DNA of 64,000 nt from a virus. Location: IMG/VR virus record IMGVR_UViG_3300042565_001021, positions 91,046 to 155,045 of that record. One strand, given 5' to 3'. Position 1 is the stretch's first letter. Every line of letters starts with the position of its first letter. The notes below the pieces were generated by a model. It made no database searches, was not told the DNA's origin, and was given only the letters and a program-made list of their open reading frames with translations. Shown here piece after piece: positions 3,618 through 59,442 of this stretch. The position numbers and the translations under genes were made by a program.

Positions 3618-3702
3618 ATAAATAAAAGTGCAGTTCGCGATGTTGAAGCATCCAACTGCCCTAGACTAACCAGGAGGCTATATGTCCAGCAATAATACTT
3701 AT
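3618..3702 (+). ncRNA. Conserved structured leader of endonuclease gene (copy 1)
   Basis: ATAAATA-AAAGT-GCAGTT-CGC-GATG-ttgaag-CATC-C-AACTGC...AGGAGG...ATG...TACTTAT. Confidence 0.65.
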
Positions 3703-4230
3703 TACGTTTACGCATATCTGCGCAATAAAGACTCAAAAACTGCTAAAGCAGGAACACCTTATTATATTGGCAAAGGATCAGGACGACGCGCCTGGGTAAC
3801 CCATAAACATAAGACCCCGGTGCCGAAAGATAAAACGTTTATTGTTCTACTTGAACAGAATTTAACTGAAGTCGGAGCATTAGCCTTAGAGAGGAGAATG
3901 ATTGCTTGGCATGGAAGAAAAGATTTAGGAACAGGCATTCTATTAAATAGAACAGACGGAGGAGACGGTTGTAGCGGAGTTATTATGTCTGAATTAACTA
4001 AAGAAAAACGTAATGCTGCGCAAAGAGGAAAGAAGTTGTCAGAAGAACATAAGAGAAAAATATCTGTCGGTTCAAAATCAAGACCGCCTATATCCGAAGA
4101 AACGAGAGAAAAATTTAGGCTACGAAACAAAAACCGGGCGCCGATGACAGCTGAAGAGAGGGTAAAATTATCAATTGCAGTAACGCAGTCATGGGCAAGA
4201 AGAAAATTACTTAAATCTTCTGCCGCTTAA
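3682..4230 (+). CDS. Free-standing GIY-YIG-like homing endonuclease with NUMOD3 repeats
   Basis: YYVYAY...PYYIGKG..RR, LNRTDGGDG, basic SEEHKRKIS/SEETREK repeats; antisense to neighbours, AT-rich. Confidence 0.85.
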   Translation: MSSNNTYYVYAYLRNKDSKTAKAGTPYYIGKGSGRRAWVTHKHKTPVPKDKTFIVLLEQNLTEVGALALERRMIAWHGRKDLGTGILLNRTDGGDGCSGVIMSELTKEKRNAAQRGKKLSEEHKRKISVGSKSRPPISEETREKFRLRNKNRAPMTAEERVKLSIAVTQSWARRKLLKSSAA

Positions 4231-4675
4231 TCCATTTGATTTCATCATATGTTGTTTTCAACGGAATACCAAAGCTTGCTAATTTCTTTCGAAATATGAA
4301 AAACGAAGGACCATGACTTAAGAGCGGAGCCCTACCTGAAGTTATTCTATCGGCGCCAAGGACCGACCATTGGTATTGATGGCACATTTCATGCGCTAGG
4401 ATCATTATCATCCATTGAATACAGAAGAACCTGTAATTTAGCTTTATCTTCGTGTAATGCTTCGGCTCAGAAAAGCCTATACACATTCCCCACACGTTTA
4501 GGTTGCGTAGGTTGATGCTTGGGTGTTTTAACTTACCGTCGAATATATGGGTATTTAATAGATCGTATGCTTGGTGCACATCTTCTATTTTAGGCTGATA
4601 CTTCTTCTTCCGCTGATAACGCTTACTAGGCAACGGAATCTTCATTAGTTCGATAAGGGAAGTAGAAGGAAGCAC
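4211..4675 (-). CDS. SprT-like zinc metalloprotease
   Basis: LAHEMCH zincin motif plus HGPSF. Confidence 0.75.
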   Translation of the reverse strand: MLPSTSLIELMKIPLPSKRYQRKKKYQPKIEDVHQAYDLLNTHIFDGKLKHPSINLRNLNVWGMCIGFSEPKHYTKIKLNYRFFCIQWMIMILAHEMCHQYQWSVLGADRITSGRAPLLSHGPSFFIFRKKLASFGIPLKTTYDEIKWIKRQKI

Positions 4676-4713
4676 ATGTTATTTAGTGCTTCGCTTCTAC
4701 TATTTTGGAGTGG

Positions 4714-5166
4714 TTAATTCCAGATTTTTACTTGGTGCTTACACAGCAGACCGGTTGTGTCCGGAGTAACGTCAATCAATAACCCGGCCTCTTGGATTAC
4801 ATACGTTCCGTTGGACAGCTCAAGAAACTTGTACTTATCCAGCATATACCAGCCTGCGTCGTACCGCCCTTCGACAGGCGTATGCGCTGCAATATTGACG
4901 AAGTAGTTATTGGTCTTCTTGTCGTGGCAGGCGTCGGTAATTTCCCAGGTCCGAAGGAGAGCGTCGATGCATCGTCCGGTAACATCTTCGTAACTTGCGG
5001 CTGGTGCTGTGGCTACTTGTTCAACGGTTGCGACCTTTGGATCTTCTTTCTGAAGTTCAGACGCAAGCCAAAACCCTCCAGCAGTCACTGCGGCCGATAC
5101 TGCAAAGACCGCAACTATTGTCAGTCCAATTCGGATTTTTCGGAAGTGTTCAGGGGGTATCATCAT
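4714..5166 (-). CDS. Hypothetical membrane-anchored protein
   Basis: N-terminal hydrophobic segment. Confidence 0.6.
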   Translation of the reverse strand: MMIPPEHFRKIRIGLTIVAVFAVSAAVTAGGFWLASELQKEDPKVATVEQVATAPAASYEDVTGRCIDALLRTWEITDACHDKKTNNYFVNIAAHTPVEGRYDAGWYMLDKYKFLELSNGTYVIQEAGLLIDVTPDTTGLLCKHQVKIWN

Positions 5167-5273
5167 TTGGTGGTTTCCTTTTGACAGCTTCTGCTACAAG
5201 AGAGACAACCGTCGGCGCCATAAGAAGCACACCGATCAGTATCCCGAGAAGCATAGCATTTTGTTCAGTGAGT

Positions 5274-5492
5274 TCACACATCGTCGTCACTTCTTTCCAC
5301 AATGAAGTTTGCGGTGGTTTGGACGATGTAATCAACTTCTTCGAACTCCACGTCTGGACGCTTGGAAAGCACGAATGCCTTCCTGGCATCACGAGTGGCG
5401 CGATCAAGGAAGACTTCGCACGGAGTGTAAAACACGCTCCAGCCCTCCCTGCTACCGTCGTCCTCGTCGTAATACAACAGGAAGACGTCCAT
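5274..5492 (-). CDS. Hypothetical early protein
   Basis: Compact ORF in packed minus-strand run. Confidence 0.6.
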   Translation of the reverse strand: MDVFLLYYDEDDGSREGWSVFYTPCEVFLDRATRDARKAFVLSKRPDVEFEEVDYIVQTTANFIVERSDDDV

Positions 5493-5495
5493 TGA

Positions 5496-5693
5496 TTACC
5501 CCTTTACCTTGTAAGGCACGGAGGTCTTCACGACCTGCTTGATGGCTTCAAGCGCCATCTCGTACGAGGCAGCGGGCACCTCGGCAATCACATACGACGC
5601 AGCTTTCTGCGTGTTGTATTGCAGTTCATAAACGGCCTTGGTAGCGGCCACCGTTACTGCTTCGTTCAAAACTACTGCTTGGGCTTTTGCCAT
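5496..5693 (-). CDS. Hypothetical early protein
   Basis: AGGAG RBS upstream. Confidence 0.65.
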   Translation of the reverse strand: MAKAQAVVLNEAVTVAATKAVYELQYNTQKAASYVIAEVPAASYEMALEAIKQVVKTSVPYKVKG

Positions 5694-5730
5694 TTTTACT
5701 ACTCCTTATTGTGCTACGGTTGAAAAACTT

Positions 5731-5991
5731 TTAGCCTTGATCCTTTTGTGCGTTAGGTTTAAGTTGCGGCTCCATTTTGATGTCGAGCTCGCGGATAGTT
5801 TCGCTTGGAAGCCAAATGCCACTCGGCACTTTTACCTGACACCCTTGCATCGGTCCCCAGCGCACAGGCAGTCCGCTGTCTTCCCACTTGCTTTGGCATT
5901 CCCACTTGGCCATTCCGTACACAAACAGGATCATAGCAGGCAGTAGAAGAATTAAAAGAATGAGCCACACGTCGCCTTTTTGCTTTTTCAT
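5731..5991 (-). CDS. Hypothetical membrane protein
   Basis: KQKG plus hydrophobic helix; GGAGG RBS. Confidence 0.65.
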   Translation of the reverse strand: MKKQKGDVWLILLILLLPAMILFVYGMAKWECQSKWEDSGLPVRWGPMQGCQVKVPSGIWLPSETIRELDIKMEPQLKPNAQKDQG

Positions 5992-6308
5992 TTGTCCTCC
6001 ACTGTGGTTAAAACTGCTCTGTCGTCTTCGACAGTTATTTCGTAGGTGTAGTCACCTTCGTCGCTCGGATGGCACAGGTAAATGTCGCCAGCGCCTTCTT
6101 TGAAGTTAGCAATCACTTGCGCGGCCAAGCAGTCCAGACCGTTAGCAAACTCGCCATCGGGCATCGTCATAGGAATTCCTTGGCCGATTGTGAAATACTT
6201 GAGATAATTTTCTAGTGTTTCTTTGAAGTCGGCTCCGTCGCAATGCTTGTAGAAAGCATACAGCGGTTTTCCTGCTTCGACAAAGCGGACCACGCAGCAG
6301 GTGCTCAT
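5988..6308 (-). CDS. Hypothetical phage protein (YxHxDG family)
   Basis: Likely start MSTCCVV; FYKHCDG...NGLDCLAAQVIA..K. Confidence 0.65.
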   Translation of the reverse strand: MSTCCVVRFVEAGKPLYAFYKHCDGADFKETLENYLKYFTIGQGIPMTMPDGEFANGLDCLAAQVIANFKEGAGDIYLCHPSDEGDYTYEITVEDDRAVLTTVEDK

Positions 6309-6309
6309 G

Positions 6310-6438
6310 CTATTCGATCCCTCGTTGTGCGTTGTGCTTCTGACGTGCGCGAGTCGCAAACTTGCCGCGCTTGACTTTGTGCTGGCCAGCGCCGCAGGTC
6401 TTTGCGTTCTTTGCGACGAAATTGCGTTGCTTAATCAT
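6310..6438 (-). CDS. Small basic protein
   Basis: MIKQRNFVAKNAKTCGAGQHKVKRGKFATRARQKHNAQRGIE. Confidence 0.55.
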   Translation of the reverse strand: MIKQRNFVAKNAKTCGAGQHKVKRGKFATRARQKHNAQRGIE

Positions 6439-6454
6439 TTTTGTCTTCTTCACT

Positions 6455-6652
6455 TTAGTCTTTGTCGGGGACGGTTTCCGCCATAACTCTTGCCTACTGC
6501 CCAGGTGCGTATACTGTACGCTGAGGTCCTGCGTCGCTGTCGATCCCGTACAGGATGTTAAGAACCCCGTAATCAGTGTTGATGTCGTCAACGTTCTCAA
6601 TGACGTCGTAGCGAGCATCGTGCGGCTTTGAGATTCTAACTGTGGTCGCCAA
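6455..6652 (-). pseudogene. Small ORF possibly interrupted by TAG (6494-6496)
   Basis: TTG start MATTVRISKPHDARYDV...VYAPGQ*ARVMAETVPDKD-TAA fills the gap between genes exactly. Confidence 0.4.
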
Positions 6653-6865
6653 TTACTTCACCTTTACCACGTAACCGTTTTCGATAGTGGCCTCGGCGTA
6701 CCAGCTGTGGGCCTGCGGATAGTGCGGCCCTTCCAGGCATACTGTGCCTTGCTTGGGTTCGTTGCCGCCGAATGGCCCTGGTTGATAGATGCGGACCTTC
6801 TCGCCTGCGGCAACAGCTTCCTTCAGCGCCTTCTTCGTTTTGAAATTCGTTGTCGTGTACATATT
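6653..6865 (-). CDS. Hypothetical early protein
   Basis: MYTTTNFKTKKALKEAVAAG...EGPHYP.AH.WYA; likely start near 6862. Confidence 0.7.
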   Translation of the reverse strand, partial: NMYTTTNFKTKKALKEAVAAGEKVRIYQPGPFGGNEPKQGTVCLEGPHYPQAHSWYAEATIENGYVVKVK

Positions 6866-7155
6866 TACATGCTCCAGTAAAGGTTGGTCGAAGGATCGCA
6901 AGGACCGCCTTGATCAGACCTGCGGATGAGCACCGGCTTGCCGCTCATCATGTTTGTCACTGTGACCAGCGGATCGTGTTTCATCGAAAAGTCTTCGTAG
7001 GTCATCACAACCCACTGCGCGGTGTTGCCGTATTCCTTGTTCAAACGTGCCGCTACGCCTTTCGCGCCGCGTTCGGTGTCGTAGGAGGCCGAACCGTATT
7101 TGCCGGGCTTGCGGTAAAGTCGCTCAGTTCCGACATTCATTATCACGTAACTCAT
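6865..7155 (-). CDS. Hypothetical early protein
   Basis: Start MSYVIM follows a promoter/RBS cassette; ends CDPSTNLYWSM. Confidence 0.7.
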   Translation of the reverse strand: MSYVIMNVGTERLYRKPGKYGSASYDTERGAKGVAARLNKEYGNTAQWVVMTYEDFSMKHDPLVTVTNMMSGKPVLIRRSDQGGPCDPSTNLYWSM

Positions 7156-7215
7156 TTGTTGCTCCGTTTTGTTAGCGTATGAGCGTATTATACAGCCATT
7201 TCGCTCAAAGGTCAA
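7156..7215 (-). promoter_or_regulatory. Early sigma70 promoter-RBS cassette
   Basis: TTGACC-17nt-TATAAT-acgctcatacgctaacaaaacGGAGcaacaaATG. Confidence 0.85.
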
Positions 7216-7218
7216 CCA

Positions 7219-7407
7219 TTATTTGCAAGTAGCAACCTTGCCGTCGGGCATGTATTTTACAGTGACACCAGACGTGAATTGGAGATACAGAACGCCATCC
7301 ACGCATGTCTGCGTTCCGCCGCCAGTTATAGCGGAGATATTGCGATCAACGACGCCGCAGGCAGACAGTGACAGGACAGCAGCAAGGATAAGGAGTGTGG
7401 TTTTCAT
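7219..7407 (-). CDS. Small lipoprotein
   Basis: Lipobox LSAC after signal peptide. Confidence 0.7.
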   Translation of the reverse strand: MKTTLLILAAVLSLSACGVVDRNISAITGGGTQTCVDGVLYLQFTSGVTVKYMPDGKVATCK

Positions 7408-7419
7408 TTTGTTTCCTTT

Positions 7420-7797
7420 TTAGAGGTACATCATTTCTTCGGAGTTGCGCTTGGCAGTGGCCGCAGCGTCAAAGTCCCAGTTCCTCCAGCAAAACGCATT
7501 CAGGTCCAGCCTGTGCGTCCGTGCCATCCTGGAGCCCGGGTACGCAACAATGGTCACGCACTTCTCAGTGATTTTGGTGATCGTCCCGGTGTAGGACAAG
7601 TTGTAGGAATCGTATTCGGCTTCGTCGCCGACGCGCAGGGTGACGCCTTGCTTGATGCTGCCGTCTTTTTGCGCTTTGTGGATTGTGATGCTGTCGTAAC
7701 CGCCTTTGACGAACTTGCCAAAGTAAGCCTGGTATTCGGTGGGGGAAGCAGGATAAATCGTGCCGTGGAATTTGCGGGCTTTGGACATGACGATCAT
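7420..7797 (-). CDS. Hypothetical early protein
   Basis: Directly follows promoter/RBS cassette. Confidence 0.7.
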   Translation of the reverse strand: MIVMSKARKFHGTIYPASPTEYQAYFGKFVKGGYDSITIHKAQKDGSIKQGVTLRVGDEAEYDSYNLSYTGTITKITEKCVTIVAYPGSRMARTHRLDLNAFCWRNWDFDAAATAKRNSEEMMYL

Positions 7798-7889
7798 TTG
7801 CTTTTCTCCGTTACGTTATTCAATAAAGCTATTATACGCTCTTTTTAGGAAAAGTCAACCGAAATCTTAGGCGTTGTAAGTCATTGATT
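7798..7889 (-). promoter_or_regulatory. Early sigma70 promoter cassette with upstream 14-mer GTAAGTCATTGATT
   Basis: TTGACT-16nt-TATAAT-agctttattgaataacgtaacGGAG; 14-mer at 7876-7889. Confidence 0.8.
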
Positions 7890-8081
7890 ACCTTCGGGTT
7901 TTATGTCTTTAAGATTGACCCATTTGTCACCTATTAGTATCTCAATGTCTCCGTTTTGGTACAAACGGAACACTCCGAGGTCAGTGACGCGCTCAGTATA
8001 TGGCGGCGGAGTAGTCTGGTCTGGCATTGAAATATTTACGCCAGATTGCTGTAGAAAAAAGCTGAGCGTTAACTCAAAAGA

Positions 8082-13488: not shown

Positions 13489-13709
13489 TTAACCCACCTC
13501 AGAGCGAACAGAACAGCGTCTGATTCTTTTTCAAAGGAAAACGTAAGTGGCCCGTATCCTGTGTCTTCGTCTTCATGGGTGCTAGTCATTCGTCCGGTTA
13601 TGTTCTTTGCTACCCAGCAAGCAGACCCTTGCATAACGCATTCGGTCCAGTTGTCAACAATGACGTTATACGGATACGGTGCCCATGGCAATTTTCTGTT
13701 CACAGCCAT
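13485..13709 (-). CDS. FxxExD..FxLxW family protein
   Basis: Ends FEKESDAVLFALRWVK. Confidence 0.75.
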   Translation of the reverse strand: MAVNRKLPWAPYPYNVIVDNWTECVMQGSACWVAKNITGRMTSTHEDEDTGYGPLTFSFEKESDAVLFALRWVK

Positions 13710-14236
13710 TTTGCGAACAGCTCCTTAAATTCTTCTTCGGTTAGGTCACCTACGTCCTTGCCTTCCGGCAGGAACACGCATTCAGCACCGTACTTAGCAA
13801 GCTTCTTACCTGCTGCGTCGCCCTGAACACAAGCTACCTTCCGCTGCGGCATCCCCATCAGCCAACCAGTTAGATGCTTTGGGTTGTTGCCCATTACAGC
13901 AACAGCAGGCAGACCGTGCCAGTGTAGCCGAGCAGCGTCAAACACGCCTTCGGTCAGGAACAGAAACTTGTCCGTCCAGCGTACAGTTTCGAGACCCCAC
14001 ACAGCCAGGTGAGCGTCTTTGCTTGCGCAAGGCTTGGTTACCCAGCTAAAGTATTTCTGTAGCTTTGGGTCGCCTACTTCCTTCTTAGGCTGTGACGGAG
14101 AATACGTCTGAAACCCAACTGCCTGCCCAGATAAATTCCATAACATCACAGTCATCATTTTATCTGTCACCGTAAGGCTACTATACCGCTGCGGGTCAAA
14201 ATAACGACTACGTAGATGAGTTAGCATTTTATCCAT
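13700..14236 (-). CDS. TOPRIM-domain (primase-like) protein lacking a zinc finger
   Basis: FLTEGVFDA...AVAVMG...GDAAG...KDVGD; TTGACA/TATAAT promoter at 14243-14271. Confidence 0.7.
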   Translation of the reverse strand: MDKMLTHLRSRYFDPQRYSSLTVTDKMMTVMLWNLSGQAVGFQTYSPSQPKKEVGDPKLQKYFSWVTKPCASKDAHLAVWGLETVRWTDKFLFLTEGVFDAARLHWHGLPAVAVMGNNPKHLTGWLMGMPQRKVACVQGDAAGKKLAKYGAECVFLPEGKDVGDLTEEEFKELFAKWL

Positions 14237-14280
14237 GTTTGTATTATACATGAAAATTTACTAAATGTCAACCAAAAAAG

Positions 14281-14358
14281 ATAAATAAGTGTGGACCACG
14301 GAGTTCGCCGCTCCCGCCCACTCTAACGCTATAAGGAGCAATCAGCATGTATATTTAT
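14281..14358 (+). ncRNA. Conserved structured leader of endonuclease gene (copy 2)
   Basis: ATAAATA-AGT-GTGGAC-CAC-GGAG-ttcgccg-CTCC-C-GCCCAC-TCTAACGCTataaggAGCaatcagcATG..TATTTAT. Confidence 0.65.
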
Positions 14359-14964
14359 ACTTCAGAACAAGTAAGACCATATGTTTATATGGGAATTCAT
14401 AAAGTAACCGGTGAGATTTACATAGGTTATCGTGAAGCAAACTCAACTCCGTCACACCTTGATATCTTCGAATATCGGACTTCGTCTAAGATAGTTAAAC
14501 CGAAGTTTGATGATTATACCTGGTATATAGTAGCAGAGTTCATAACAGGTGATGCGGCTTATGACTTTGAACAACAATTGATATTTGAAAATTGGGATAG
14601 TCCTCTTCTGTTAAACAGAAGCTGTCAATTTGGTCATCAGAAAAGATTTAAGTGTTCAAATAAAGGAAGAAAACAATCAGACAGTCATATCGCAAAGCTG
14701 ACTGAGATTCGTAAAAATAGGACACTTCCGGCTGATTTCGGCGCAAAGGTCTCGGCTGGTCTCAAAGGAAAACCGAAATCCGAAGAGCATAAGATAAAAA
14801 CAGGTAATGCCTTTCGAGGGATCCCTCGAACTGAAGAAACTAAGCAAAAAATTAAAGAGAAAAGAGCTCTTCAGGTAATAACACATGAATCAAGAATTAA
14901 AGCCGCAGCGACCCGAGCAAGAAACTTAGCATTGAAAAGTCAACCAAAAGAAATGGGCCCATAA
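14347..14964 (+). CDS. Free-standing GIY-YIG homing endonuclease with NUMOD3 repeats
   Basis: YVYMGIHKVTGEIYIGYR; KPKSEEHKIK and RTEETKQKI repeats. Confidence 0.8.
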   Translation: MYIYTSEQVRPYVYMGIHKVTGEIYIGYREANSTPSHLDIFEYRTSSKIVKPKFDDYTWYIVAEFITGDAAYDFEQQLIFENWDSPLLLNRSCQFGHQKRFKCSNKGRKQSDSHIAKLTEIRKNRTLPADFGAKVSAGLKGKPKSEEHKIKTGNAFRGIPRTEETKQKIKEKRALQVITHESRIKAAATRARNLALKSQPKEMGP

Positions 14965-22203: not shown

Positions 22204-22289
22204 ATAAATAATAGTGCAGTTCGCGATACGCAAATATCCAACTGCCTTAGTCATCCTTGGGAGGATATATGACCAACACTACTATTTAT
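22204..22289 (+). ncRNA. Conserved structured leader of endonuclease gene (copy 3)
   Basis: ATAAATA-ATAGT-GCAGTT-CGC-GATA-cgcaaa-TATC-C-AACTGC...GGAGG..ATG..CACTACTATTTAT. Confidence 0.65.
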
Positions 22290-22835
22290 GATAACACTAC
22301 TGCCACAAAAACACAAGAGTTTAAGCCAACTTACCTATACATAAAACAGCATAATGTTACCGGATTGAAGTATTTCGGTAAAACCATTAGTAGCGATCCT
22401 GTTAAATATAAAGGTTCTGGGTTAATGTGGAAAAGACACCTTAAGAAACACGGAAATAACGTTACAACTACTTGGTTGAGGTTGTTTACTGATCAAAAAG
22501 AGTTAACTGAATTTGCTCTCGACTTTTCAAAAGAAAATAACATTATCGAATCCAAGGAATGGGCAAACTTATTATTTGAAGATGGAGTTGCCGGCGGGTT
22601 TGGTGGTCATACTATTAAAGGTAGAAAGTTAGGTCCTATGTCTGAAGAACATAAAAGAGCACTATCTATTGCTAATCGTGGAAAAGGTCGCCCACCTATT
22701 TCAGAAGAAACCAGAGTTAAAATGTCAGCAGCAAGAAAAGGGAAGCCGGCTGCAAATGCCGGAAAGAAGCACTCCGAAGAAGCCAGGCGCAAAATATCTG
22801 AGGCCAGAAAAAGATACCTTAGTAAGGTCTTATAA
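22269..22835 (+). CDS. Free-standing GIY-YIG-like homing endonuclease with NUMOD3 repeats
   Basis: PTYLYIKQH..TGLKYFGKT...YKGSG..W..HL; SEEHKR/SEETR/SEEARRKISEA repeats. Confidence 0.85.
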   Translation: MTNTTIYDNTTATKTQEFKPTYLYIKQHNVTGLKYFGKTISSDPVKYKGSGLMWKRHLKKHGNNVTTTWLRLFTDQKELTEFALDFSKENNIIESKEWANLLFEDGVAGGFGGHTIKGRKLGPMSEEHKRALSIANRGKGRPPISEETRVKMSAARKGKPAANAGKKHSEEARRKISEARKRYLSKVL

Positions 22836-42716: not shown

Positions 42717-44624
42717 TTAGAATTCGTCGGATCCTAACACGGCCGGCCCATACCATTCTGTTACCCTGTGTTTATTCTGTCTGTTAATACGTGTTATCAT
42801 TTCGTTTATTGATTCTTTAACGGCTTTTGGCGTAGCTAAACACACTAAGTCGTCGTGTTGATTAAACACCTCCGATGGTGTTATATTAGGTAATACTTCG
42901 TTACTAATTAGATTATATCCACATACTGTGTATCGACCATGCCTGTATAGTTTTTCCCAAAGCCCTTTACTACCGCCTAGACCACCCTCAGTTAAATTTG
43001 TGTCTGACAAAACTGATAATCCGTCATTCATTATAGCATAGTCATACAAGTAAGTTCCGAATCCTTGCGACTTATACTTTTCTTCAATTTGTACTAATCT
43101 AACCTGCCACAAAGAACTATTATATTTTTCTAATTGTAAAAGACCAACTAACGTATTACGTATCGGAGATTGAGGATCAAATAACCCGTAGTATAGCTCG
43201 TCCCCTTTTGTAATCTTTTTTAACTCTAATCCGTGAACTTCGTGAATAACAGGTGTACCTAGTGGAAAATATGTAGATTTGTATGAGATATCGTTGTCCC
43301 TAATAGGGCTCGTAATTGCTTCCAATGTTAGGTCTTCGTCTTCCTTGTTTCTTTCATAGTCACGAAGCTTATCGAAGTATCCGTTGTTCCTTATTGTCTT
43401 AAAGGCCAGGTTCTCAACGCTAAACTCGCCTTCGCGCTCTAGTCCCGCCCTACGCATTCTGCGGATGTGTTCCCACAGGTCGTCAATTTCTTGTTGGTCA
43501 GTCTCAGAGGCATCACTGATAAGCAAGTCTATCTGCTGCATAATGCCTTCTGCTTTAGCTTGGACGTTGCTGTCGTCATACGTCGGTTTCTCGTATGTTG
43601 GTTTCTTAATCCATTCGTCGTGATACAACGAGTAGATACCGTTTGCTACGAGTTGATTTTCTTTCGCATTGACGTCTTCCGCATAGAGCTCAACGTTGAA
43701 CCCTTTAACTGTGATTTCGTGTCCGGAGTTCCAGAGGGACTTTTTAGCCCGTAGGAAGGGTTCGGTGAGAGGGTTTTCTTCTCCCAGCTTTCGCGCATCA
43801 ACCAATACGTGTAAATCCAGATCGGACTGGCTAGTGTAATTGTATCCGCAATTGCTTCCCGTAATAATGTAATCGACGATTCTGATTTGTTCGACATCAA
43901 TGAACTCCGAAAACTTGTTTGCTATTTTAGCTAGTGCGTCTTTAACGTCTGACTTTAGTTCTTCACCATCCCATAGTGCTGGGTTAAGGGTATCGCTGTA
44001 TGCTAGTTTAGTATCAACAAACTCGCGTATTGGTTGTCGTGTAGGTTCAACGCTCTCTACCTTGTAGGATTGTTTGAACCACAAGTAAATATCAACGTTG
44101 CCTGCTCGCTTATCAAATTCGCGACGTAAGATCTGAGTAAGTTGTACTTTGTTAGAATAAGTAAGATTATCCCAGTTACCGACGTCGCGGCGCAGTTGCC
44201 TAAACAGGGCATTGCTTTGTATGCGCAAGTATTCCTCAAGCTTCCAAAAGAACGTTGCGTCGTCGCTGTTGCTTTTCTGCCTTGACCTAATGTTTTGTAG
44301 ATAGCGATTGATCTGGAACAACGGAATAGACACCCTGTCGTTTACTTTGATATAGTGCTTGAACGTGTCCTGGTTGTTCAGAATTGCTAATAGGTTACCT
44401 AAGTCGGTTCCGGCGTAGTGTGTGTTGTCGTATGTGTTATAGACTAGCGTTTGATCAGCGTACCTAGACATAAGGTCTCTGTCAGATATACGATACACTT
44501 CGATCATCATAAAAATCAGGTAAATGATGCCTGCGATTTCCTCAGCAGACTTACCTTTAACGTTATCCGGGCCAAAGAACATGCGTGCTTCATATAAATA
44601 TTCAATAAAAGGAAGTTTTAACAT
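42717..44624 (-). CDS. Multidomain protein: helical N-terminus + nucleotidyltransferase + GNAT-like domain
   Basis: ITGSNCGYNY..SDLDLH; C-terminal WQVRLVQIEEKYKSQGFGTYLY. Confidence 0.65.
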   Translation of the reverse strand: MLKLPFIEYLYEARMFFGPDNVKGKSAEEIAGIIYLIFMMIEVYRISDRDLMSRYADQTLVYNTYDNTHYAGTDLGNLLAILNNQDTFKHYIKVNDRVSIPLFQINRYLQNIRSRQKSNSDDATFFWKLEEYLRIQSNALFRQLRRDVGNWDNLTYSNKVQLTQILRREFDKRAGNVDIYLWFKQSYKVESVEPTRQPIREFVDTKLAYSDTLNPALWDGEELKSDVKDALAKIANKFSEFIDVEQIRIVDYIITGSNCGYNYTSQSDLDLHVLVDARKLGEENPLTEPFLRAKKSLWNSGHEITVKGFNVELYAEDVNAKENQLVANGIYSLYHDEWIKKPTYEKPTYDDSNVQAKAEGIMQQIDLLISDASETDQQEIDDLWEHIRRMRRAGLEREGEFSVENLAFKTIRNNGYFDKLRDYERNKEDEDLTLEAITSPIRDNDISYKSTYFPLGTPVIHEVHGLELKKITKGDELYYGLFDPQSPIRNTLVGLLQLEKYNSSLWQVRLVQIEEKYKSQGFGTYLYDYAIMNDGLSVLSDTNLTEGGLGGSKGLWEKLYRHGRYTVCGYNLISNEVLPNITPSEVFNQHDDLVCLATPKAVKESINEMITRINRQNKHRVTEWYGPAVLGSDEF

Positions 44625-45232
44625 TAGATACCTTTATGCATTGCGATAACATGCTTATTTAATTGTGGCCAGGAAAATTCTTTCCTACAATATAAACAAC
44701 TGCATTTTTCAAATCTACGACCAATATTCGGGTCAACGTATCCTTCTTGTGCGTTTCTTATCTTAATAGTTGCTTTTCGGCGAGCAATGACTTCCTCAGA
44801 TAACGGTTGTCCTTTATTGATTGGTGCTCTGCCAGTTTTAATTCCTTTTCGTCCACTTGGTTTACCCCTAATAGGTGATATCCTTCCTTTTAAGCTGCCG
44901 CCACCTAATCCGTTTTCAACTACTATATTAGCCCAAATCGGGGAGTCAACAATATTTTCTCGAATTGAAAAACTAACTGCAAATTCTTTTAAATCCACCT
45001 TATCATAGAATAAGCAATACCAGAGGGTAATCACATGCTCTGCTCCAAATTCGTTAAGGTGCTTGAGCCATTCGGTGCCCGACCCTAAATATTTTTCAAC
45101 ATTAGTATCGGTCCTATAGGTTTTGCCGAAATATAACTTACCAGTTATTGTATGCTGCTTTATAAATAGATAGGTTGGTCTCAAAGTTTGTTGTTGGCGA
45201 AGCGGGCTCGAATAAATACCTTTGCTGGACAT
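44624..45232 (-). CDS. Free-standing GIY-YIG-like homing endonuclease
   Basis: PTYLFIKQH.ITGKLYFGKT...YLGSG..W..HL; C-terminal CSCLYC; start moved to ATG 45232 after GGGAG. Confidence 0.8.
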   Translation of the reverse strand: MSSKGIYSSPLRQQQTLRPTYLFIKQHTITGKLYFGKTYRTDTNVEKYLGSGTEWLKHLNEFGAEHVITLWYCLFYDKVDLKEFAVSFSIRENIVDSPIWANIVVENGLGGGSLKGRISPIRGKPSGRKGIKTGRAPINKGQPLSEEVIARRKATIKIRNAQEGYVDPNIGRRFEKCSCLYCRKEFSWPQLNKHVIAMHKGI

Positions 45233-45310
45233 ACTAATCTCCCTGATTAAATAATTATGTCTAGAGCAAGCAGATGTTGATGCATCGTGGCTTGCACTAA
45301 TCGTATTTAT
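45212..45310 (-). ncRNA. Conserved structured leader of endonuclease gene (copy 4)
   Basis: ATAAATA-CGATTAGT-GCAAGC-CAC-GATG-catcaa-CATC-T-GCTTGC-TCTAGAC...GGGAG..ATG..TATTTAT. Confidence 0.6.
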
Positions 45311-51343: not shown

Positions 51344-52219
51344 TTACTTAGTGCAGCAAAACTTACATGCTGGCAATTTTTGTTCTTCTAACTTATCTAA
51401 AAATGTTCGGTACTTGGATCCGTCAGCTAAGTGGTAAGAGAGGGGCGAATTCCTTATGTGAAACTCTGGATTGAGTTCAAACTGTGTTCCTCTAACCAGT
51501 CTGTAATCTGCTGCATAACAACAAGGATAAAAATATCCAGCAGCTGATACGAAATGAGCATTAAGAGTCTGTTTGCACTCTGGAGCAAATATTTGTGTAG
51601 TTCCCGGTCTTGGTCTCGACCAACCTACACTCGGTTTTAAGTAATCGTTTTCTATCCATCTACCAGACGTAACAATACGAAACTCGTCTACTCCCAAGGT
51701 CAGTGCGTCTGCTCGAGCATCGTGAATTGTATCTTCGTTAAAGCTAAACGGAATGTACTTCCACATAACCTTAGCAGGAGAATTGACCATTGCTCGTATT
51801 CCTATTTCAATGGTCTTCCAGTCTGCATTTATTCTGTACTTCGTAAAATTATATGGAGTACCGTCGATCGAAAAAATAATCGTATCCTCTGGTCGCACTA
51901 TCTGAGCAAATTTGCTCCACCATTCAGAAGACTTATAACTGCCGTTAGTCATAACTTCAATTCGGGCTGCGCCTCGATCCGTAAAGCCTTTGTATATTTC
52001 CAAAAACTCACTGTGGTAAATAGGATCACCTAAGTTACCGCTCAGTAACACTAAACAGCTCGATAAATCTACATCAAGGAACTTAAACAAGTCGGTTGGG
52101 TTTATGTCCTCTTTCTTAATCGTCCCGTACTCATTGATTACGTCGGTCCGAGCACATCGAGGACACTTAAGGGGACATCGGGTAGTTATTTCTAAGTGAA
52201 GACTTGTTAGTAGAGTCAT
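51344..52219 (-). CDS. Radical SAM protein with SPASM/Twitch-like tail
   Basis: CPLKCPRC; GNLGDP; TNG; FSIDG; YPCC...CKFC. Confidence 0.88.
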   Translation of the reverse strand: MTLLTSLHLEITTRCPLKCPRCARTDVINEYGTIKKEDINPTDLFKFLDVDLSSCLVLLSGNLGDPIYHSEFLEIYKGFTDRGAARIEVMTNGSYKSSEWWSKFAQIVRPEDTIIFSIDGTPYNFTKYRINADWKTIEIGIRAMVNSPAKVMWKYIPFSFNEDTIHDARADALTLGVDEFRIVTSGRWIENDYLKPSVGWSRPRPGTTQIFAPECKQTLNAHFVSAAGYFYPCCYAADYRLVRGTQFELNPEFHIRNSPLSYHLADGSKYRTFLDKLEEQKLPACKFCCTK

Positions 52220-53256
52220 GCAAATTTCCTTCTCATCAACTTAATCTTTAGCTCGCTTGTTTCAACAGAATCGACGATGGTTTTTAACACGAACAATTTT
52301 CCGTATTTTATAACAGCATCGTTTATATCGCTACACGTTTCTGACCACACAGGAAACGATACCGACCATCCATGTGCTAACGCTATATCGACTAAGTTCT
52401 GTCCGGTCTTGTTCCAATCCGGTACTACTATAATTTCTCTGTCTAAGTTCTCAATGATATCTACTTGTTGCTTCGTTACTTCGGCCTTCATTACTGCCAC
52501 TGCATCAATACTTAGCGCATCAAACACACCTTCACAAACAATCACAAACTTCTGATTCTTTAACTGCTTATCTACGTTAAACACGTATCCAGAGTCAAAC
52601 TGGTTGTAGTATTTTGGTGTTATTCCATCGATTGTTGCGCGAGCAGTATAACCTATTATCTCGTTGTTCCAAGTGAAAGGAACGATGACTCGTTTGTTTA
52701 GTTTGTGCTCTGTTATGTCAGTTACGTAAAAGTCGTATTTCTGCATGTTGATGCTTCGGCAATTTACGTAAGTAATAGCTCTTGTAAAGTCTGCCGGCCA
52801 TATATGGCTGTTATCTTTAAGCTCGTAAAATTCTACCATCCCTAAGAAGCTGACAGATTCTTCTGGCAAAGGAACCTTCTTAAATTCGACCTTTAGGTCT
52901 TCTTTTTTTTCGACAGGTTTAACTAAGCCTAATGCTTCTTGTCGTTGCGCTTCGCGCAATGCTTCGAGCTTTAACCTGTAAATCTCAAGGTCATCAACTC
53001 CTAACCATTTAAGTAACTTCTGAAACTTAAACGGTAGAGCATAGCCTGGAACGTAAGATGCCTTAAACTGACAGTTGAAGCAATGAAAGCTGACCGTCCC
53101 GTCGCCGTTTATGATCAGGCCGCCGCGACCTCTTGTGTCCTGGGATTCACCGTTATGAGGACAGCAAACAGCATTGCCTGTTATCCACCCCTTAGAGGCG
53201 GTGCGTGTTTTTCGCCCAGTCTTCCAAGCGGCAAGAACTGTATCTTGAATAATCAT
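52216..53256 (-). CDS. DNA primase (gp61-like)
   Basis: Zn-binding CC.H...HCFNC; TOPRIM CEGVFDA, PDW, DIND. Confidence 0.85.
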   Translation of the reverse strand: MIIQDTVLAAWKTGRKTRTASKGWITGNAVCCPHNGESQDTRGRGGLIINGDGTVSFHCFNCQFKASYVPGYALPFKFQKLLKWLGVDDLEIYRLKLEALREAQRQEALGLVKPVEKKEDLKVEFKKVPLPEESVSFLGMVEFYELKDNSHIWPADFTRAITYVNCRSINMQKYDFYVTDITEHKLNKRVIVPFTWNNEIIGYTARATIDGITPKYYNQFDSGYVFNVDKQLKNQKFVIVCEGVFDALSIDAVAVMKAEVTKQQVDIIENLDREIIVVPDWNKTGQNLVDIALAHGWSVSFPVWSETCSDINDAVIKYGKLFVLKTIVDSVETSELKIKLMRRKFA

Positions 53257-54505: not shown

Positions 54506-54733
54506 CAGCAGCATAGTAAGAGTCTGGTCGTCGCATTCTACGTATTCAATAACGTTAGTAGGCCCGGTTGAAACTACGTCTATGCTCCATTCGTCACGCA
54601 GCCATTGGTAAAACTTGTCGTCATACAAATACATGCCCGCCTCTTTCTTTAATTCTCGCAGAATGTGCGACCAAGAGACAGGGACATACCAGCCGCGCGC
54701 ACCGGGTATCGGGTTAGTCAGGTAGTGTCTCAT
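54485..54733 (-). CDS. Hypothetical protein, distant member of the FxxExD..LxW family
   Basis: Ends DDQTLTMLLLKY. Confidence 0.55.
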   Translation of the reverse strand: MRHYLTNPIPGARGWYVPVSWSHILRELKKEAGMYLYDDKFYQWLRDEWSIDVVSTGPTNVIEYVECDDQTLTMLLLKYPAN

Positions 54734-55301
54734 TGAGAAGATTCATGTTTACTACAACTAAGTGTGAATAGGCACAGGCGTGCGCTTGTTTAAATGCGTA
54801 ACTTCCATCAGTTGGTTTCTCCCAAATCGTCTTAGCTACCTCTGACCAAGATTTTCCTATTAGGTGCTTCTTGCTGGGACGAATCATCGCAATGAACATC
54901 ATTAAGCGAGGAATGCTATCAATGACATCAGGTAAGCTAGAAATAACATCGAAGTAATTACCGATGTGTATTAACTTCTCGCAGAACTCTTGCTCGTATA
55001 ACTTCTCCCACGGCGGTTCAGTTGTCATTAAATGAACGAGATGCTCTTCCGACTTTACTTGCTCATATACAGATACGTTGAGCACATCGACTTTAAAGTA
55101 TCCGCGTTCTTCAGCTTCCTTATAGTCCAAGGTTGATCGCAGATTATGATCGTGCGGGATTTCTGTAAAGTACACGCCAGATGCGTGATTAGTTAGCTTT
55201 CCATCGTTTCGCAGTATGCTTGCGGAATAGTGTTTGAAAGGTGCTAACGCTATCTCGCGAGATGCTACGTCAATGTCGATGTCACTGTTAAACTTTGTCA
55301 T
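54714..55301 (-). CDS. Minimal DnaE (Pol III alpha, family C) catalytic core
   Basis: SDIDID, HASGV, GYFKVDVL, IRP, YAFKQAHACAY. Confidence 0.8.
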   Translation of the reverse strand: MTKFNSDIDIDVASREIALAPFKHYSASILRNDGKLTNHASGVYFTEIPHDHNLRSTLDYKEAEERGYFKVDVLNVSVYEQVKSEEHLVHLMTTEPPWEKLYEQEFCEKLIHIGNYFDVISSLPDVIDSIPRLMMFIAMIRPSKKHLIGKSWSEVAKTIWEKPTDGSYAFKQAHACAYSHLVVVNMNLLNETLPD

Positions 55302-55352: not shown

Positions 55353-55433
55353 ATAAATAGTAGTGCGGGTCGCGATACTGATAATATCCACCCACTCTAA
55401 TCGCTTATAGGAGCAACCAGCATGTCTATTTAT
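55353..55433 (+). ncRNA. Conserved structured leader of endonuclease gene (copy 5)
   Basis: ATAAATA-GTA-GTGCGGGT-CGC-GATA-ctgataa-TATC-C-ACCCAC-TCTAATCGCTtataggAGCaaccagcATGtcTATTTAT. Confidence 0.65.
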
Positions 55434-56123
55434 AGTATCTACAGAATAACTAATCTTTTAACGAATAAAGTATATATCGGGTTTACTTCCGATCCAGAGC
55501 AACGATGGGCAAAACATTGTTCGTGCAGTAAAAGGAAATCTTCTAAACTATTATACAACTCTATTCGCAAACACGGATTAGAAAATTTTACATTTGACAT
55601 TATATACCAGTCTCGAGATTTAACGCATACTAAAAATATTATGGAGAATTATTTTATCAACGAATATAATTCTTATGTTGGACATAAAAATTCCAATGGT
55701 TATAATATGACCTTAGGCGGAGACGGAGGAGACACCTCGTCTAGCCCAAAATATAAATCAGGAATAATAAGAAGAGGCAATAGTGACTGGAGGTTAAAGT
55801 GTAGCATAAGTAAGCTCGGTAGAAATTTAAGGCCACAAACAAAAGAACATATACAAAACCGAGTTCTTTCTCGGTCCGGAAAACCTAACATAAAAAGACT
55901 AACTAAAGAGCAATGCGTAAACATGGCGCGGGATGGAGACACAAATGGACATGCTAAACAATGGTGCTTTATGTCTCCATTTAATGAGAAATTTATCATC
56001 CAAGGACAATTTCAGCAATTCTGTAAAGAGCACGACTTAGAATATTCCGGAATGAAGAAAATAGCAAAAGGCGGCCAAGCTAAGAAAGGCAAAAACTTAG
56101 GATGGTCTGTATTTGAATTATAA
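55422..56123 (+). CDS. Free-standing GIY-YIG homing endonuclease
   Basis: IYRITNLLTNKVYIGFT...RW..H...E..FI...GYNMTLGGDG. Confidence 0.9.
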   Translation: MSIYSIYRITNLLTNKVYIGFTSDPEQRWAKHCSCSKRKSSKLLYNSIRKHGLENFTFDIIYQSRDLTHTKNIMENYFINEYNSYVGHKNSNGYNMTLGGDGGDTSSSPKYKSGIIRRGNSDWRLKCSISKLGRNLRPQTKEHIQNRVLSRSGKPNIKRLTKEQCVNMARDGDTNGHAKQWCFMSPFNEKFIIQGQFQQFCKEHDLEYSGMKKIAKGGQAKKGKNLGWSVFEL

Positions 56124-56789: not shown

Positions 56790-56796
56790 TTAGTTT

Positions 56797-57270
56797 TTAA
56801 CCCAACTCTTTTTTAATCTGTTCCTTCGTCCATCCAAGTTCTTCAGCTAACTTCTTTACATCTTTTGCGTCGTTTAACGAAGCCAACAGGTCTACATCGC
56901 TTTCCTTCATGTCAGGATATAAGGTAGCTAAAAATTTTTCAACTTTGGCTGTTGTTCCGCCTTCTTTCTTCTTCATACCAAGCCACGGATGATACTGCTT
57001 ACCCATCCCCGGTGATATCGTAGTTGCTGCTAACCAGTTCAGTTTGTCGTGCTTAGTTTTATTGATGTCAAAGTAGTGTTTGTTTAGCCGCAAGTTAGTA
57101 GACTGTAGGTAATACTCTTGTAAGTCTGCGGAGCCTTGAACCGATGCTCCCCAGCGTATCATCAAGTATGAACTAAACTTTTTCTTTTCTTCGTCAGACA
57201 GATTATCGTAGAACTCACGATCCTTTCTGTCCAAAGCTAACATTTCATTGGCGATATCAAGCTTACTCAT
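56797..57270 (-). CDS. Possible clamp-loader small subunit (gp62-like)
   Basis: K.FS.YL..RW..S...N...N pattern, in replication cluster; start MSKLD. Confidence 0.4.
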   Translation of the reverse strand: MSKLDIANEMLALDRKDREFYDNLSDEEKKKFSSYLMIRWGASVQGSADLQEYYLQSTNLRLNKHYFDINKTKHDKLNWLAATTISPGMGKQYHPWLGMKKKEGGTTAKVEKFLATLYPDMKESDVDLLASLNDAKDVKKLAEELGWTKEQIKKELG

Positions 57271-57357
57271 CACTCGTCCTTCATTACCGTCGGCTTCTAA
57301 GAAAGGTAAAAAATACACATAGATCCAGTAACTGGTCGTCGTTATATGGCATAATGT

Positions 57358-57861
57358 CTACCAGCACTTCCCGTAATCTACAATCTCACTTTGTCGGCTA
57401 ATGTCTTTAACAAAGTACGCACAAAGAGGTTTACTCCCATGTTCAGTTAACGGTACTGCTAACATTTGTCCTGGCTTCAGCTTTGGGAAATACCATTTAA
57501 CATCTTGGTAGATGTCGATTACTTCAACTGGATAAAACACAGGGCTAAATCCTGTAAGTGGATTAAAACAAAACACCTTAAATCCCCTGTCATTCACACT
57601 CGTCAGCGGCACAACCTCAAGGTCACCTAAGTCCGGCTCTCCGATTAGAATCTGCCAGTCAATAGGCATGCGGATTACTTCGTCGCCTATACGCAATACA
57701 AGAGCAGGACTGTTAAAGCTCTCAAGGAAAATAAGCGGAATGTAAAAGTAGTCTGGCTCTTTCGGATTGCTGTTGTCAAGTACGCAGAAGCGTAAGTCAT
57801 CTACCTCATCTGGTATCTCGTTCATTTCGTGCGCTTTGTTGTCAAGCGTAAGTATTCTCAT
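57358..57861 (-). CDS. Hypothetical conserved protein
   Basis: Coupled to the helicase gene. Confidence 0.7.
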   Translation of the reverse strand: MRILTLDNKAHEMNEIPDEVDDLRFCVLDNSNPKEPDYFYIPLIFLESFNSPALVLRIGDEVIRMPIDWQILIGEPDLGDLEVVPLTSVNDRGFKVFCFNPLTGFSPVFYPVEVIDIYQDVKWYFPKLKPGQMLAVPLTEHGSKPLCAYFVKDISRQSEIVDYGKCW

Positions 57862-59336
57862 TTGGTTCCTTTAGTGACTGGTTCCCATTCTACCTTTTCG
57901 ATTGTGTAAGGATAGTTGGCTTCTGTATAAAACTGTTTGCGTTTTGTTAAATGTCTCTTGGCAAATTTACAAGTCGAAGTGACGTCGTATATATCAACGA
58001 AGTCTTTGTCTTCTGCTTTACGAATACCCCGACCAATGCTTTGGATAACCCGTACGAAAGACTTACCAGGCTCAATAAGCACAAGGTTAAAAATGCGAGG
58101 CACGTTGATGCCAACAGCAGCGATACCATACGTACATACAGTGACGCCGTTGTCATTAGTTGCGATACTGTCATACTGGTCCTTTCGTTTATCTGACTTA
58201 GTTGCCCCACTTAGGAAGACCGCTCCAGGAATACAGTTGACCAAGGCTTTACCTGGATCAACTCGGTCAATGAGGACTAAGGTGTTTCCTGTTGTGCTAA
58301 TTTGCTGAATCAGCTTTGCCATGTAATAAAGGCGACCTTCTGTTTCCAACAGATACTTTAGCTCGTCCGGATACTTCTTAAACTCTGCGTAATCGATCAT
58401 CTGTACAATATTGACATGACAGTTCGACAAGATACCTTTGTCCTGTAGCTCGCTTGCTCTAACTGTTCCTACTACTTCACCCACTGATACTCTCAGCGAA
58501 TACTTCTCAAAGTCTTCTTTCGGGATAGTTCCAGTAATACCTAAACGAATAGGAATGCGAGACATAGGACCTGTCATCATACCGAGCAAAGCATCAGCTT
58601 TAAGCCCGTGGCACTCGTCAATCATTACGCATACAACACCGTCAATGAATTCGCTGAATGGTACCTGTGCTTCTCCTGATTTAGTTTTCTTAAACATAGA
58701 GTTCAAGCTTTGCCAAGTACAAATAGTGTGCGTCTTATCGTATTCTTTTCGTGTGCCAAAGAATACACCAACATCTAACCCCATGTTTATGTAATCGGCT
58801 TCGGTCTGAAGAACTAAGTCTTTACTCGGAACGACTACAACTGTGCGACCATAAGGCTCGAACTTGTGGCTAAGAACTGCTGTTAGGATCGTTTTACCGA
58901 AGCCAGTTGCCAGGCACTGAATGCTTTGCGTATTGTTTAGGAAGATGTTTATTGCTTCGACTTGGTCGTCGCGCAGCTCAATTGGTTGTCCGGCGAACCG
59001 GTGTCCTTCTGGCCATTTAATATGCGAGTAACTATCTTCTGCTACTTCGACGAACTCAAACTGTGAACCGTAATCTCGCAAATCCTCAAGTTCGATGTTG
59101 TAACCTTCGCTATCAAGGATCGGCAAGATTTCCGGCAAGAGATTGATGTAGGTTTGCAGTGAAAGAGAACAAAAAGATTTTTTCCCGTCCCAGCGGCCCA
59201 ATTTTACAGCTGGCGTATATCTAGCTCCGGGTATCTCAAACTTAAACTTGTTAGATAACTTTTTTCTAACAGCAAGGTCTACCCCTGTGATCTGACAATT
59301 TGTCTCTGACTCAATGATAATCTTACACGTTGCCAT
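57858..59336 (-). CDS. UvsW-like superfamily 2 helicase
   Basis: LRDDQ, ATGFGKT, DECH, TGT, QSIGRGIR. Confidence 0.9.
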   Translation of the reverse strand: MATCKIIIESETNCQITGVDLAVRKKLSNKFKFEIPGARYTPAVKLGRWDGKKSFCSLSLQTYINLLPEILPILDSEGYNIELEDLRDYGSQFEFVEVAEDSYSHIKWPEGHRFAGQPIELRDDQVEAINIFLNNTQSIQCLATGFGKTILTAVLSHKFEPYGRTVVVVPSKDLVLQTEADYINMGLDVGVFFGTRKEYDKTHTICTWQSLNSMFKKTKSGEAQVPFSEFIDGVVCVMIDECHGLKADALLGMMTGPMSRIPIRLGITGTIPKEDFEKYSLRVSVGEVVGTVRASELQDKGILSNCHVNIVQMIDYAEFKKYPDELKYLLETEGRLYYMAKLIQQISTTGNTLVLIDRVDPGKALVNCIPGAVFLSGATKSDKRKDQYDSIATNDNGVTVCTYGIAAVGINVPRIFNLVLIEPGKSFVRVIQSIGRGIRKAEDKDFVDIYDVTSTCKFAKRHLTKRKQFYTEANYPYTIEKVEWEPVTKGTK

Positions 59337-59362
59337 AATATCCTAAAAGTAAATGAAACGAG

Positions 59363-59442
59363 ATAAATAATAGTGTCGATCGCGATACTGGACATATCCA
59401 CCGACTCTAACGCTTTCAAGGAGCAATCAGCATGATATTTAT
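59363..59442 (+). ncRNA. Conserved structured leader of endonuclease gene (copy 6)
   Basis: ATAAATA-ATAGT-GTCGAT-CGC-GATA-ctggaca-TATC-C-ACCGAC-TCTAACGCTttcaaggAGCaatcagcATGaTATTTAT. Confidence 0.65.

Follow-up and report, generated by a model that had tools for sequence, protein, structure and literature searches.

The RNA-OUT transcript of IS10/Tn10 is a stable stem-loop antisense RNA of ~69 nt directed to the translation-initiation region, and its effect is stronger at high copy number of the element (PMC5006887). In T-even phages and Aeh1, several homing-endonuclease genes (HEGs), namely I-TevI, I-TevII, I-TevIII, segB and Aeh1 mobE, carry a sense-strand hairpin that hides the ribosome-binding site (RBS), with a late promoter inside it (PMC2988022). 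CfrI of cyanophage S-PM2 is summarized as an antisense RNA of ~225 nt that lies opposite an HEG, is co-expressed with it and links the HEG to psbA (Millard et al., 2010, via PMC2984593). PeSL modules, which flank ORFans in T4-type phages, consist of an early sigma70 promoter and a stem-loop terminator on the same strand (PMC2839356, PMC4122927). The subject of this report is a cassette of ~85 bases that occurs six times in a 64,000-nt stretch of viral DNA (the window, meaning here the whole of that stretch), which is the final 64 kb of the 155,045-bp IMG/VR viral contig IMGVR_UViG_3300042565_001021 (positions 91,046–155,045). The cassette opens HEGs of unrelated families, and its hairpins have been selected on the strand opposite the gene. 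Judging from its sequence, the cassette rather likely codes for a short antisense RNA that keeps the nuclease in check. Because the contig is 44% complete by CheckV, its source is an uncultured phage of roughly 350 kb; nearly all genes of the contig lie on the minus strand.

A portable cassette at the start of homing-endonuclease genes

On the gene strand, the cassette begins with an ATAAATA motif, continues through two hairpins, P1 and P2, the second of which carries the Shine-Dalgarno (SD) sequence, and ends with a TATTTAT motif shortly past the start codon of the nuclease gene. The original prediction, made from the letters of the window, had listed six copies of a structured leader in front of endonuclease genes, and all six were found in place with the layout that it described. 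A loose pattern matched the window 7 times, against 0.84 matches expected, and a covariance model run on the whole 155-kb contig found 10 full-length copies and no more (E 2e-14 to 5e-7), which comprise the six in the window and four others at contig positions 11169, 46303, 47385 and 65509. All 10 sit directly before an HEG. The claim that the stems change in sequence and keep pairing is borne out by these 10 copies: in the two nested stems, compensatory changes occur in 8 of the 10 pairs, 94% of the cells are paired, and the observed covariation score is reached by none of 500 shuffles.

Two pattern scans of IMG/VR matched at least 119 and at least 120 loci, respectively, and combined they place the cassette at >200 metagenomic viral loci, which is a lower bound. 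Both stems form in 118 matches of the first scan set, and the covariance model matched 107 sites in 100 loci. Five large viral genomes (259–525 kb, 73–100% complete) contain 2–13 copies each. The open reading frames (ORFs) downstream fall into at least six N-terminal classes, namely GIY-YIG, SegE-type GIY-YIG, LEM-3-type GIY-YIG, MobE-type HNH, HNH_3 with AP2, and NUMOD3 only. Five nuclease genes of the window match phrog_314 'homing endonuclease' and the sixth is of the HNH, MobE-like kind (59432–60130, 35% identity to T-even MobE), in agreement with the five GIY-YIG-type nucleases and one HNH nuclease that had been predicted; Pfam identifies GIY-YIG in 55422–56123 and NUMOD3 in 22269–22835, and the other phrog_314 genes are GIY-YIG-like by sequence. 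With at least six classes downstream, the cassette is, as had been proposed, a portable, structured and covarying module, and in giant, uncultured T4-like phages it stands at the head of many selfish nuclease genes that are unrelated to one another.

As anticipated, the cassette corresponds to no family described in Rfam, which gave 0 matches at the gathering score across the whole 64-kb window and 0 matches at E ≤ 10 for copy 6 on both strands. Full-text literature searches found no description of it, a blastn search with a typical cassette found no match in 50,697 phage records, and a nucleotide search with window positions 3000–8000 found no relative. The covariance model found no match in Sinorhizobium phage Phosso, Agrobacterium phage Atu_ph07, Synechococcus phage S-CRM01, Pseudomonas phage PA5oct or Vibrio phage 2.275.O, or in the 28–46 kb region of T4, which includes mobB, mobC and I-TevII. 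In 185,579 prokaryotic genomes, the commonest variant was matched only on two contigs of metagenome-assembled genomes (MAGs), L298 (1.7 kb) and L299 (2.0 kb), which are binned with a Mucilaginibacter MAG and a Bacteroidetes MAG; both are probably mis-binned viral DNA and provide at best a weak hint of Bacteroidota hosts.

Two cassette matches, at L019:698–795 (53 bits) and L081:6124–6201 (43 bits), are followed by no ORF of at least 60 aa and may be relics that persist after loss of the nuclease gene. A natural control is provided by a cassette-less, GIY-YIG-like HEG (phrog_314/15526) that lies outside the window on the main coding strand of the contig (G000:C1:6248–6949, minus); it is preceded by ATAAATA and an SD with no hairpins.

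The strand that folds and the facing promoter motifs

P1 is an 11-bp helix with two one-base bulges (each a bulged G on the antisense strand); what had been read as a CRC bulge plus a single C/T is really one base pair between two 1-nt bulges. A K-turn in this bulge was ruled out by inspection, there being no tandem G·A pairs and the middle base being paired. The segment described as SD-containing does contain the SD, yet it is a second covarying hairpin, P2, whose arms include ACATT/AATGT, TGATT/AATCA, ATGCT/AGCAT and TGTCT/AGACA, whose loop holds the AAGG of the SD, and which extends as far as two invariant triplets, the CTA in CTCTAA and the CAG in CAGC.

The mismatches in these helices distinguish the two strands. 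Among 114 unique cassettes, the middle pair of P1 on the gene strand is G-C in 76, A-U in 13, A·C in 24 and G·U in 1; the outer stem of P1 comprises 657 Watson-Crick pairs, 27 A·C and 0 G·U; and the pair flanking the P2 core is A·C 59 times and G·U once, so that the three tallies pooled give 110 A·C mismatches against 2 G·U. The stems quoted in the original prediction were correct in sequence, and two that it had given as paired, GTGGAC/GCCCAC and GTCGAT/ACCGAC, each hold an A·C mismatch. Because an A·C on one strand is a G·U on the other, selection has acted on the fold of the opposite strand; when the cassettes are read as antisense RNA, 100% of the outer stem of P1, 98% of the middle pair and 99% of the inner stem are paired. 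The pairing filter scored G·T as paired and A·C as a mismatch, and its bias therefore works against the A·C excess. This excess reflects selection and not mutation bias, because A·C events occur at several positions, in both arms and in many stem sequences; as its source, mutation bias would require a >30-fold asymmetry between the two kinds of transition at several positions in both arms, and was rejected. A covarying hairpin before a gene thus need not belong to the mRNA of that gene, and the comparison of A·C with G·U is a test of the strand.

Minimum-free-energy folding of the antisense strand gives exactly two hairpins in 114 of 114 cassettes, with the first paired base at nt 2 in 106, and the antisense fold is more stable than the sense fold in 107 (mean −19.3 vs −14.1 kcal/mol; Wilcoxon p 1e-19). 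The two-hairpin antisense architecture is present in all six window copies, at −15 to −25.7 kcal/mol, compared with −12 to −22 kcal/mol for the sense strand. In the original prediction the structure had been assigned to the leader of the nuclease mRNA, in which the hairpins would act as a 5′-terminal stabilizer, a translational operator or a protein-binding site. Such a role would agree with the predicted sense +1 at the first base of P1, with the position of the SD in the loop and 3′ arm of P2, and with the RBS hairpins of T-even HEGs, of which that of seg43(25) lies just upstream of the RBS (PMC2988022). It is nevertheless quite improbable, in view of the A·C excess and the weaker sense fold described above, and of a promoter that lies outside both hairpins, so that late transcripts are not freed from them. 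In place of an mRNA leader, the sequences show a fold selected on the opposite strand, with a second late-promoter motif, facing inward, at its boundary. The nuclease-binding site and the element end that had also been suggested are without support, since the stems differ before similar nucleases and the same cassette precedes unrelated ones.

Two facing T4-type late-promoter motifs, which share the geometry TAAATA-N5-G, flank the fold; in T4 and T4-like cyanophages, the late promoter that depends on gp55 is TATAAATA/NATAAATA (PMC2984593). The flanks were tallied in a separate set picked solely by the commonest P1 sequence, with flanks unconstrained (n = 109); 108 of these have TAAATA on the left side and 103 have TATTTA on the right. 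For the spacing, 75 of 89 cassettes fit ATAAATA-N5-G(P1) and 79 of 109 fit CAGC-N5-TATTTA. On the antisense strand the right motif reads ATAAATA-N5-GCUG, in which GCUG is invariant in 99–100 of 101. On the gene strand the promoter motif appears as its reverse complement, TATTTA(T), 3–5 bases past the start codon in 89 of the 114 cassettes, and it is found in each of the three reading frames (ATG-NN-TATTTAT, ATG-A-TATTTAT and ATG-TATTTAC), both within ORFs and outside them. One class has its start codon 9 nt further upstream with an unchanged CCAGC-N5-TATTTAT spacing, which places the motif 14 nt into the ORF. The codons that overlap the motif are biased at synonymous sites: in ORFs of the MxIY type, codon 2 always ends in T (60 of 60; 28.5 expected, p 4e-20), ATT encodes Ile in 54 of the 60 (43% in the background) and TAT encodes Tyr in 54 (70%). 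The bias in codons 2–4 therefore indicates that the right motif is constrained as nucleotides. Long-range pairing of ATAAATA with TATTTAT in a read-through RNA was also considered and rejected, since the right motif is unchanged where the left one is CTAAATA or GTAAATA.

ATAAATA also precedes ~18 other genes of the contig, 16–36 nt from SD-ATG, most of which are annotated in PHROG as 'unknown'. Distant gp55 homologues are present in all five of the large cassette-bearing viral genomes (E 1e-6 to 4e-5). The gp55-like matches in G001–G005 (e.g., G003:C1:156280–156492) belong to ORFs of ~300 aa, compared with 185 aa for T4 gp55, which suggests an extended late sigma factor in this group of phages.

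An element that acts at the level of DNA, either as a strand-specific single-stranded DNA (ssDNA) hairpin in homing, recombination or replication or as a PeSL-like shuffling repeat, is very improbable. DNA hairpins likewise tolerate G·T pairs, and the cassette is clearly mobile, having been joined to unrelated ORFs in three frames; the limits of the fold, however, match the promoter-predicted RNA ends to the base. PeSL cassettes do mediate shuffling in T4-type phages (PMC2839356, PMC4122927), but they have early sigma70 promoters and no link to HEGs, and the copies of the present cassette within a genome share exact runs of just 5–14 nt, which makes them a poor substrate for recombination.

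A candidate antisense RNA and the neighbouring genes

In the proposed mechanism, the nuclease mRNA would arise from the outer promoter, ATAAATA-N5-G, with the first base of P1 as its 5′ end, and the inner promoter (gene-strand TATTTAT in codons 2–4, the two motifs being ~75 bp apart) would start an antisense RNA of about 65–87 nt, with 66–87 nt predicted for the copies of the window. Transcription from T4 late promoters follows a start-site rule; if this rule is valid here, the 5′ end of the antisense RNA would therefore be the G of GCUG, one base before P2as. The RNA would then fold into P2as, with a CCUU-containing loop complementary to the SD, followed by P1as and a ACUUUUAUUUAU-like U-rich sequence at its 3′ end, the U-tract being the complement of the outer promoter. 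P1as is followed by AC and a tail such as UUUUAUUUAU, with 4–5 U among the first 8 tail bases in most cassettes, so that the sequence contains the G+C-containing hairpin and U-rich tract of an intrinsic terminator; a simple terminator scanner misses P1as because of its bulges.

The predicted RNA would be perfectly complementary to the 5′ untranslated region of its own nuclease mRNA, beginning at the first base and stopping just short of the AUG, and in the MSS/MTS class the complementarity would span the AUG as well. Pairing with the mRNA, probably from loop-loop contacts, would block ribosome binding or trigger decay and keep the nuclease low, and collision of convergent polymerases from the facing promoters may add to the repression. 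For the genome of the window, duplex energies are −107 to −141 kcal/mol for cognate pairs and −44 kcal/mol on average for non-cognate pairs; because the cognate duplexes are stronger, each RNA would be mainly specific for its own gene, with the invariant segments leaving cross-talk possible. From the sequence we infer that both motifs fire, that transcription terminates at P1as and that the nuclease is repressed.

The main rival of the antisense RNA, or its complement, concerns the gene on the other side of the cassette. The outward late promoter and the hairpins could serve as promoter and structured leader of a neighbouring host gene, such that an HEG inserted in the opposite orientation restores expression of the gene that it severed, the hairpins being a stabilizing or processing leader, or a leaky attenuator, of the neighbour's mRNA; in T4, promoters that serve downstream host genes are known to lie within HEGs (PMC2988022). 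This role, which may coexist with an antisense one, is judged unlikely. About two thirds of the 130 classifiable contexts are indeed divergent (87, with 43 tandem), the neighbour's start lying a median of 44 nt past the cassette. However, the right motif, kept in 77 of the 87 divergent contexts (89%), is also kept with the fold in 34 of the 43 tandem contexts (79%), including that of copy 4, in which there is no downstream gene to serve, and it is therefore not merely the promoter of the neighbour. A hairpin and a U-tract moreover intervene between the promoter and the neighbour, and among the 46 divergent neighbours with a gap of at least 35 nt, 39 have a motif of their own past the U-tract, either sigma70-like (23) or TAAATA (20), which fits termination or insulation at P1as. 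The copy at contig position 65509, for example, has a perfect TTGACA-N17-TATAAT beside it. U-tracts were not weaker ahead of a downstream host gene, and their quality did not differ between contexts (p 0.71).

In the window, five of the six copies are divergent, and their neighbours are head-maturation protease, primase-like, structural-protein-like, DNA-polymerase-like and UvsW-like helicase genes. The last of these speaks for a role in the neighbour's expression. The filled site (59337–60119) is a 783-bp insertion, consisting of the HNH gene and its cassette, between the uvsW-like gene (57858–59336, minus) and the gene at 60120–61247 (minus), with the HEG and cassette oriented opposite to both; the stop of the nuclease ORF (59432–60130) overlaps the 3′ end of gene 60120–61247 by 11 nt. 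An empty site is found in contig L213:1–1330 (UvsW 78% identical), in which the homologue of 60120–61247, the gene that now lies beyond the HEG, abuts uvsW with no intergenic space. Neither the cassette nor ATAAATA is present upstream of uvsW in any of 52 relatives, and these uvsW genes have no promoter of their own.

Several observations weigh against an antisense RNA that ends at P1as and restrains the nuclease. The uvsW-like gene of the window, whose relatives are fused to the gene upstream of them, starts 26 nt past the cassette with no other promoter motif, and in about one quarter of the divergent contexts the neighbour's start codon likewise lies <35 nt past the cassette with no promoter of its own. 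An efficient terminator at P1as would sever uvsW from its native transcript, which favours a leaky terminator or a neighbour-feeding role; P1as may thus be leaky or have another role. The right motif is degenerate in copy 1 (3696–3702) and in ~20% of cassettes. Because both promoters belong to one temporal class, the RNA would be a damper and not a timing switch. T4 gp55 and gp45 gave no match in the contig of the window, of which only 44% is at hand, and the G·T-tolerant pairing would also fit an ssDNA hairpin.

A broader, rather doubtful reading would join the two roles: the cassette would be a two-way adaptor that lets HEGs settle inside essential operons through restraint of the adjoining nuclease, damping across cassettes and resupply of the host gene. 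The invariant unpaired or loop segments (GCUG, the CCUU loop and UUAGAG) would dampen other cassettes as copy number rises, and the outward promoter would, through a leaky terminator, resupply transcription to the host gene severed by the insertion. If true, such an adaptor would give HEGs their first described system for the control of copy number and polarity.

The six copies of the window vary in detail around the common plan. Copy 1 (3618–3702, plus strand, 57.8 bits) comprises ATAAATA at 3618–3624, P1 at 3630–3659, P2 of the CTAGAC/GTCCAG type at 3661–3689 with the start codon (3682) inside it, CAGC at 3687–3690 and the degenerate TACTTAT as its right motif; the predicted antisense RNA would run on the minus strand from 3690 to about 3618, the fold energy is −22.9 kcal/mol for the antisense and −15.5 kcal/mol for the sense strand, and the gene (3682–4230, plus) encodes a GIY-YIG-like HEG of 182 aa of the YVYAYLR..YYIGKG type. 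The highest score, 82.7 bits, belongs to copy 2 (14281–14358, plus), with ATAAATA at 14281–14287, P1 at 14291–14321, P2 at 14323–14345, CAGC at 14343–14346, ATG at 14347 and TATTTAT at 14352–14358; a minus-strand RNA from 14346 to about 14281 is predicted, and the gene (14347–14964, plus) encodes a SegE-type GIY-YIG-like endonuclease of 205 aa. Copy 3 (22204–22289, plus, 50.9 bits) has ATAAATA at 22204–22210, P1 at 22216–22245, P2 at 22247–22276 with the start codon (22269) inside it, CAAC at 22274–22277 and TATTTAT at 22283–22289; its RNA is predicted from 22277 to about 22204 (minus), and its gene (22269–22835, plus) encodes a NUMOD3-bearing endonuclease of 188 aa in the LYIKQH..GLKYFGKT class.

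Copy 4 (45212–45310, minus, 47.7 bits) is the sole window copy that is co-oriented with its neighbours. It comprises ATAAATA at 45310–45304, P1 at 45295–45266, P2 at 45264–45225, CAGC at 45227–45224, ATG at 45232–45230 and TATTTAT at 45218–45212; the predicted RNA would run on the plus strand from 45224 to 45310, with an antisense fold of −25.7 kcal/mol (z −3.2), and the gene (44624–45232, minus) encodes an endonuclease of 202 aa in the same NUMOD-type class as that of copy 3. Copy 5 (55353–55433, plus, 81.5 bits) consists of ATAAATA at 55353–55359, P1 at 55365–55395, P2 at 55397–55420, CAGC at 55418–55421, ATG at 55422 and TATTTAT at 55427–55433, with an RNA predicted from 55421 to about 55353 (minus) and fold energies of −22.2 (antisense) vs −13.0 kcal/mol (sense); its gene (55422–56123, plus) encodes a GIY-YIG HEG of 233 aa. 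In copy 6 (59363–59442, plus, 80.2 bits), ATAAATA lies at 59363–59369, P1 at 59375–59405, P2 at 59407–59430, CAGC at 59428–59431, ATG at 59432 and TATTTAT at 59436–59442; the predicted RNA extends from 59431 to about 59363 (minus), and the MobE-like HNH HEG, encoded on the plus strand, has 232 aa.

Some features of the genes nearby may be recorded here. Beside copy 5, window positions 54714–55301 encode a 195-aa protein of a 'DNA polymerase' family (phrog_11778); the 51-nt gap holds a sigma70-like TTGATA-N17-TATCAT with TG, and an ATAAATA abuts the start codon of the gene. Two primase-like genes are present, at 13700–14251 and 52216–53256, the first of which (183 aa) lies directly beside the HEG of copy 2 and matches only the C-terminal part of primase profiles; the primase may have been split or duplicated at the HEG insertion. 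The gene at 42717–44624 encodes a protein of 635 aa; its central part is similar to nucleotidyltransferase-like proteins from Synechococcus phages, both freshwater and marine (37–41% identity).

Relation to described systems

To our knowledge, only a few T-even cases show how free-standing HEGs are tamed in essential phage operons, and each of them relies on a sense-strand hairpin. In those cases late transcripts escape the hairpin, as the promoter lies within it. The cassette differs in both respects: no sense hairpin pairs the SD and AUG, P1 being upstream of the SD and the SD lying mainly in the P2 loop, and the late-promoter motif is not in a 5′ arm, ATAAATA-N5 preceding P1 in 75 of 89 cassettes with both hairpins downstream. 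Moreover, it is the antisense fold that has been selected, and the cassette holds a second promoter motif that converges with the first. PeSLs resemble it as short, repeated modules of promoter and stem-loop scattered in T4-type genomes; the cassette, in contrast, has late-type motifs on both strands and no −35/−10 pair, and the PeSL papers contain no link to late promoters or HEGs. CfrI, as far as the available summary describes it, likewise lies antisense to an HEG of a T4-like phage, but it occupies one locus and is not a repeated, portable two-hairpin cassette at the start of HEGs.

If confirmed, the cassette would enter the catalogues as a widespread family of phage RNAs, provide a sequence tag for HEGs and their insertion sites in viromes, and supply a small natural part that combines bidirectional promoters with a terminator. 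One module common to at least six nuclease lineages and hundreds of loci points to a structured cis-antisense RNA as the solution, as in IS10, and RNA-OUT/RNA-IN of IS10 is, by analogy, the closest working analogue. In both, the gene for a mobile DNA-cutting enzyme has within its 5′ end a second promoter, or here a promoter motif, that faces its own; for the cassette this convergent arrangement is read from the fixed spacing in 79 of 109 cases, and a short, stable antisense RNA to the translation-initiation region is predicted. The two systems share no homology in sequence or structure. In phages, the cassette serves several HEG families, with late-type motifs at both promoters, and its RNA, as predicted from the sequence, would have two hairpins and a terminator placed on the complement of the sense promoter.

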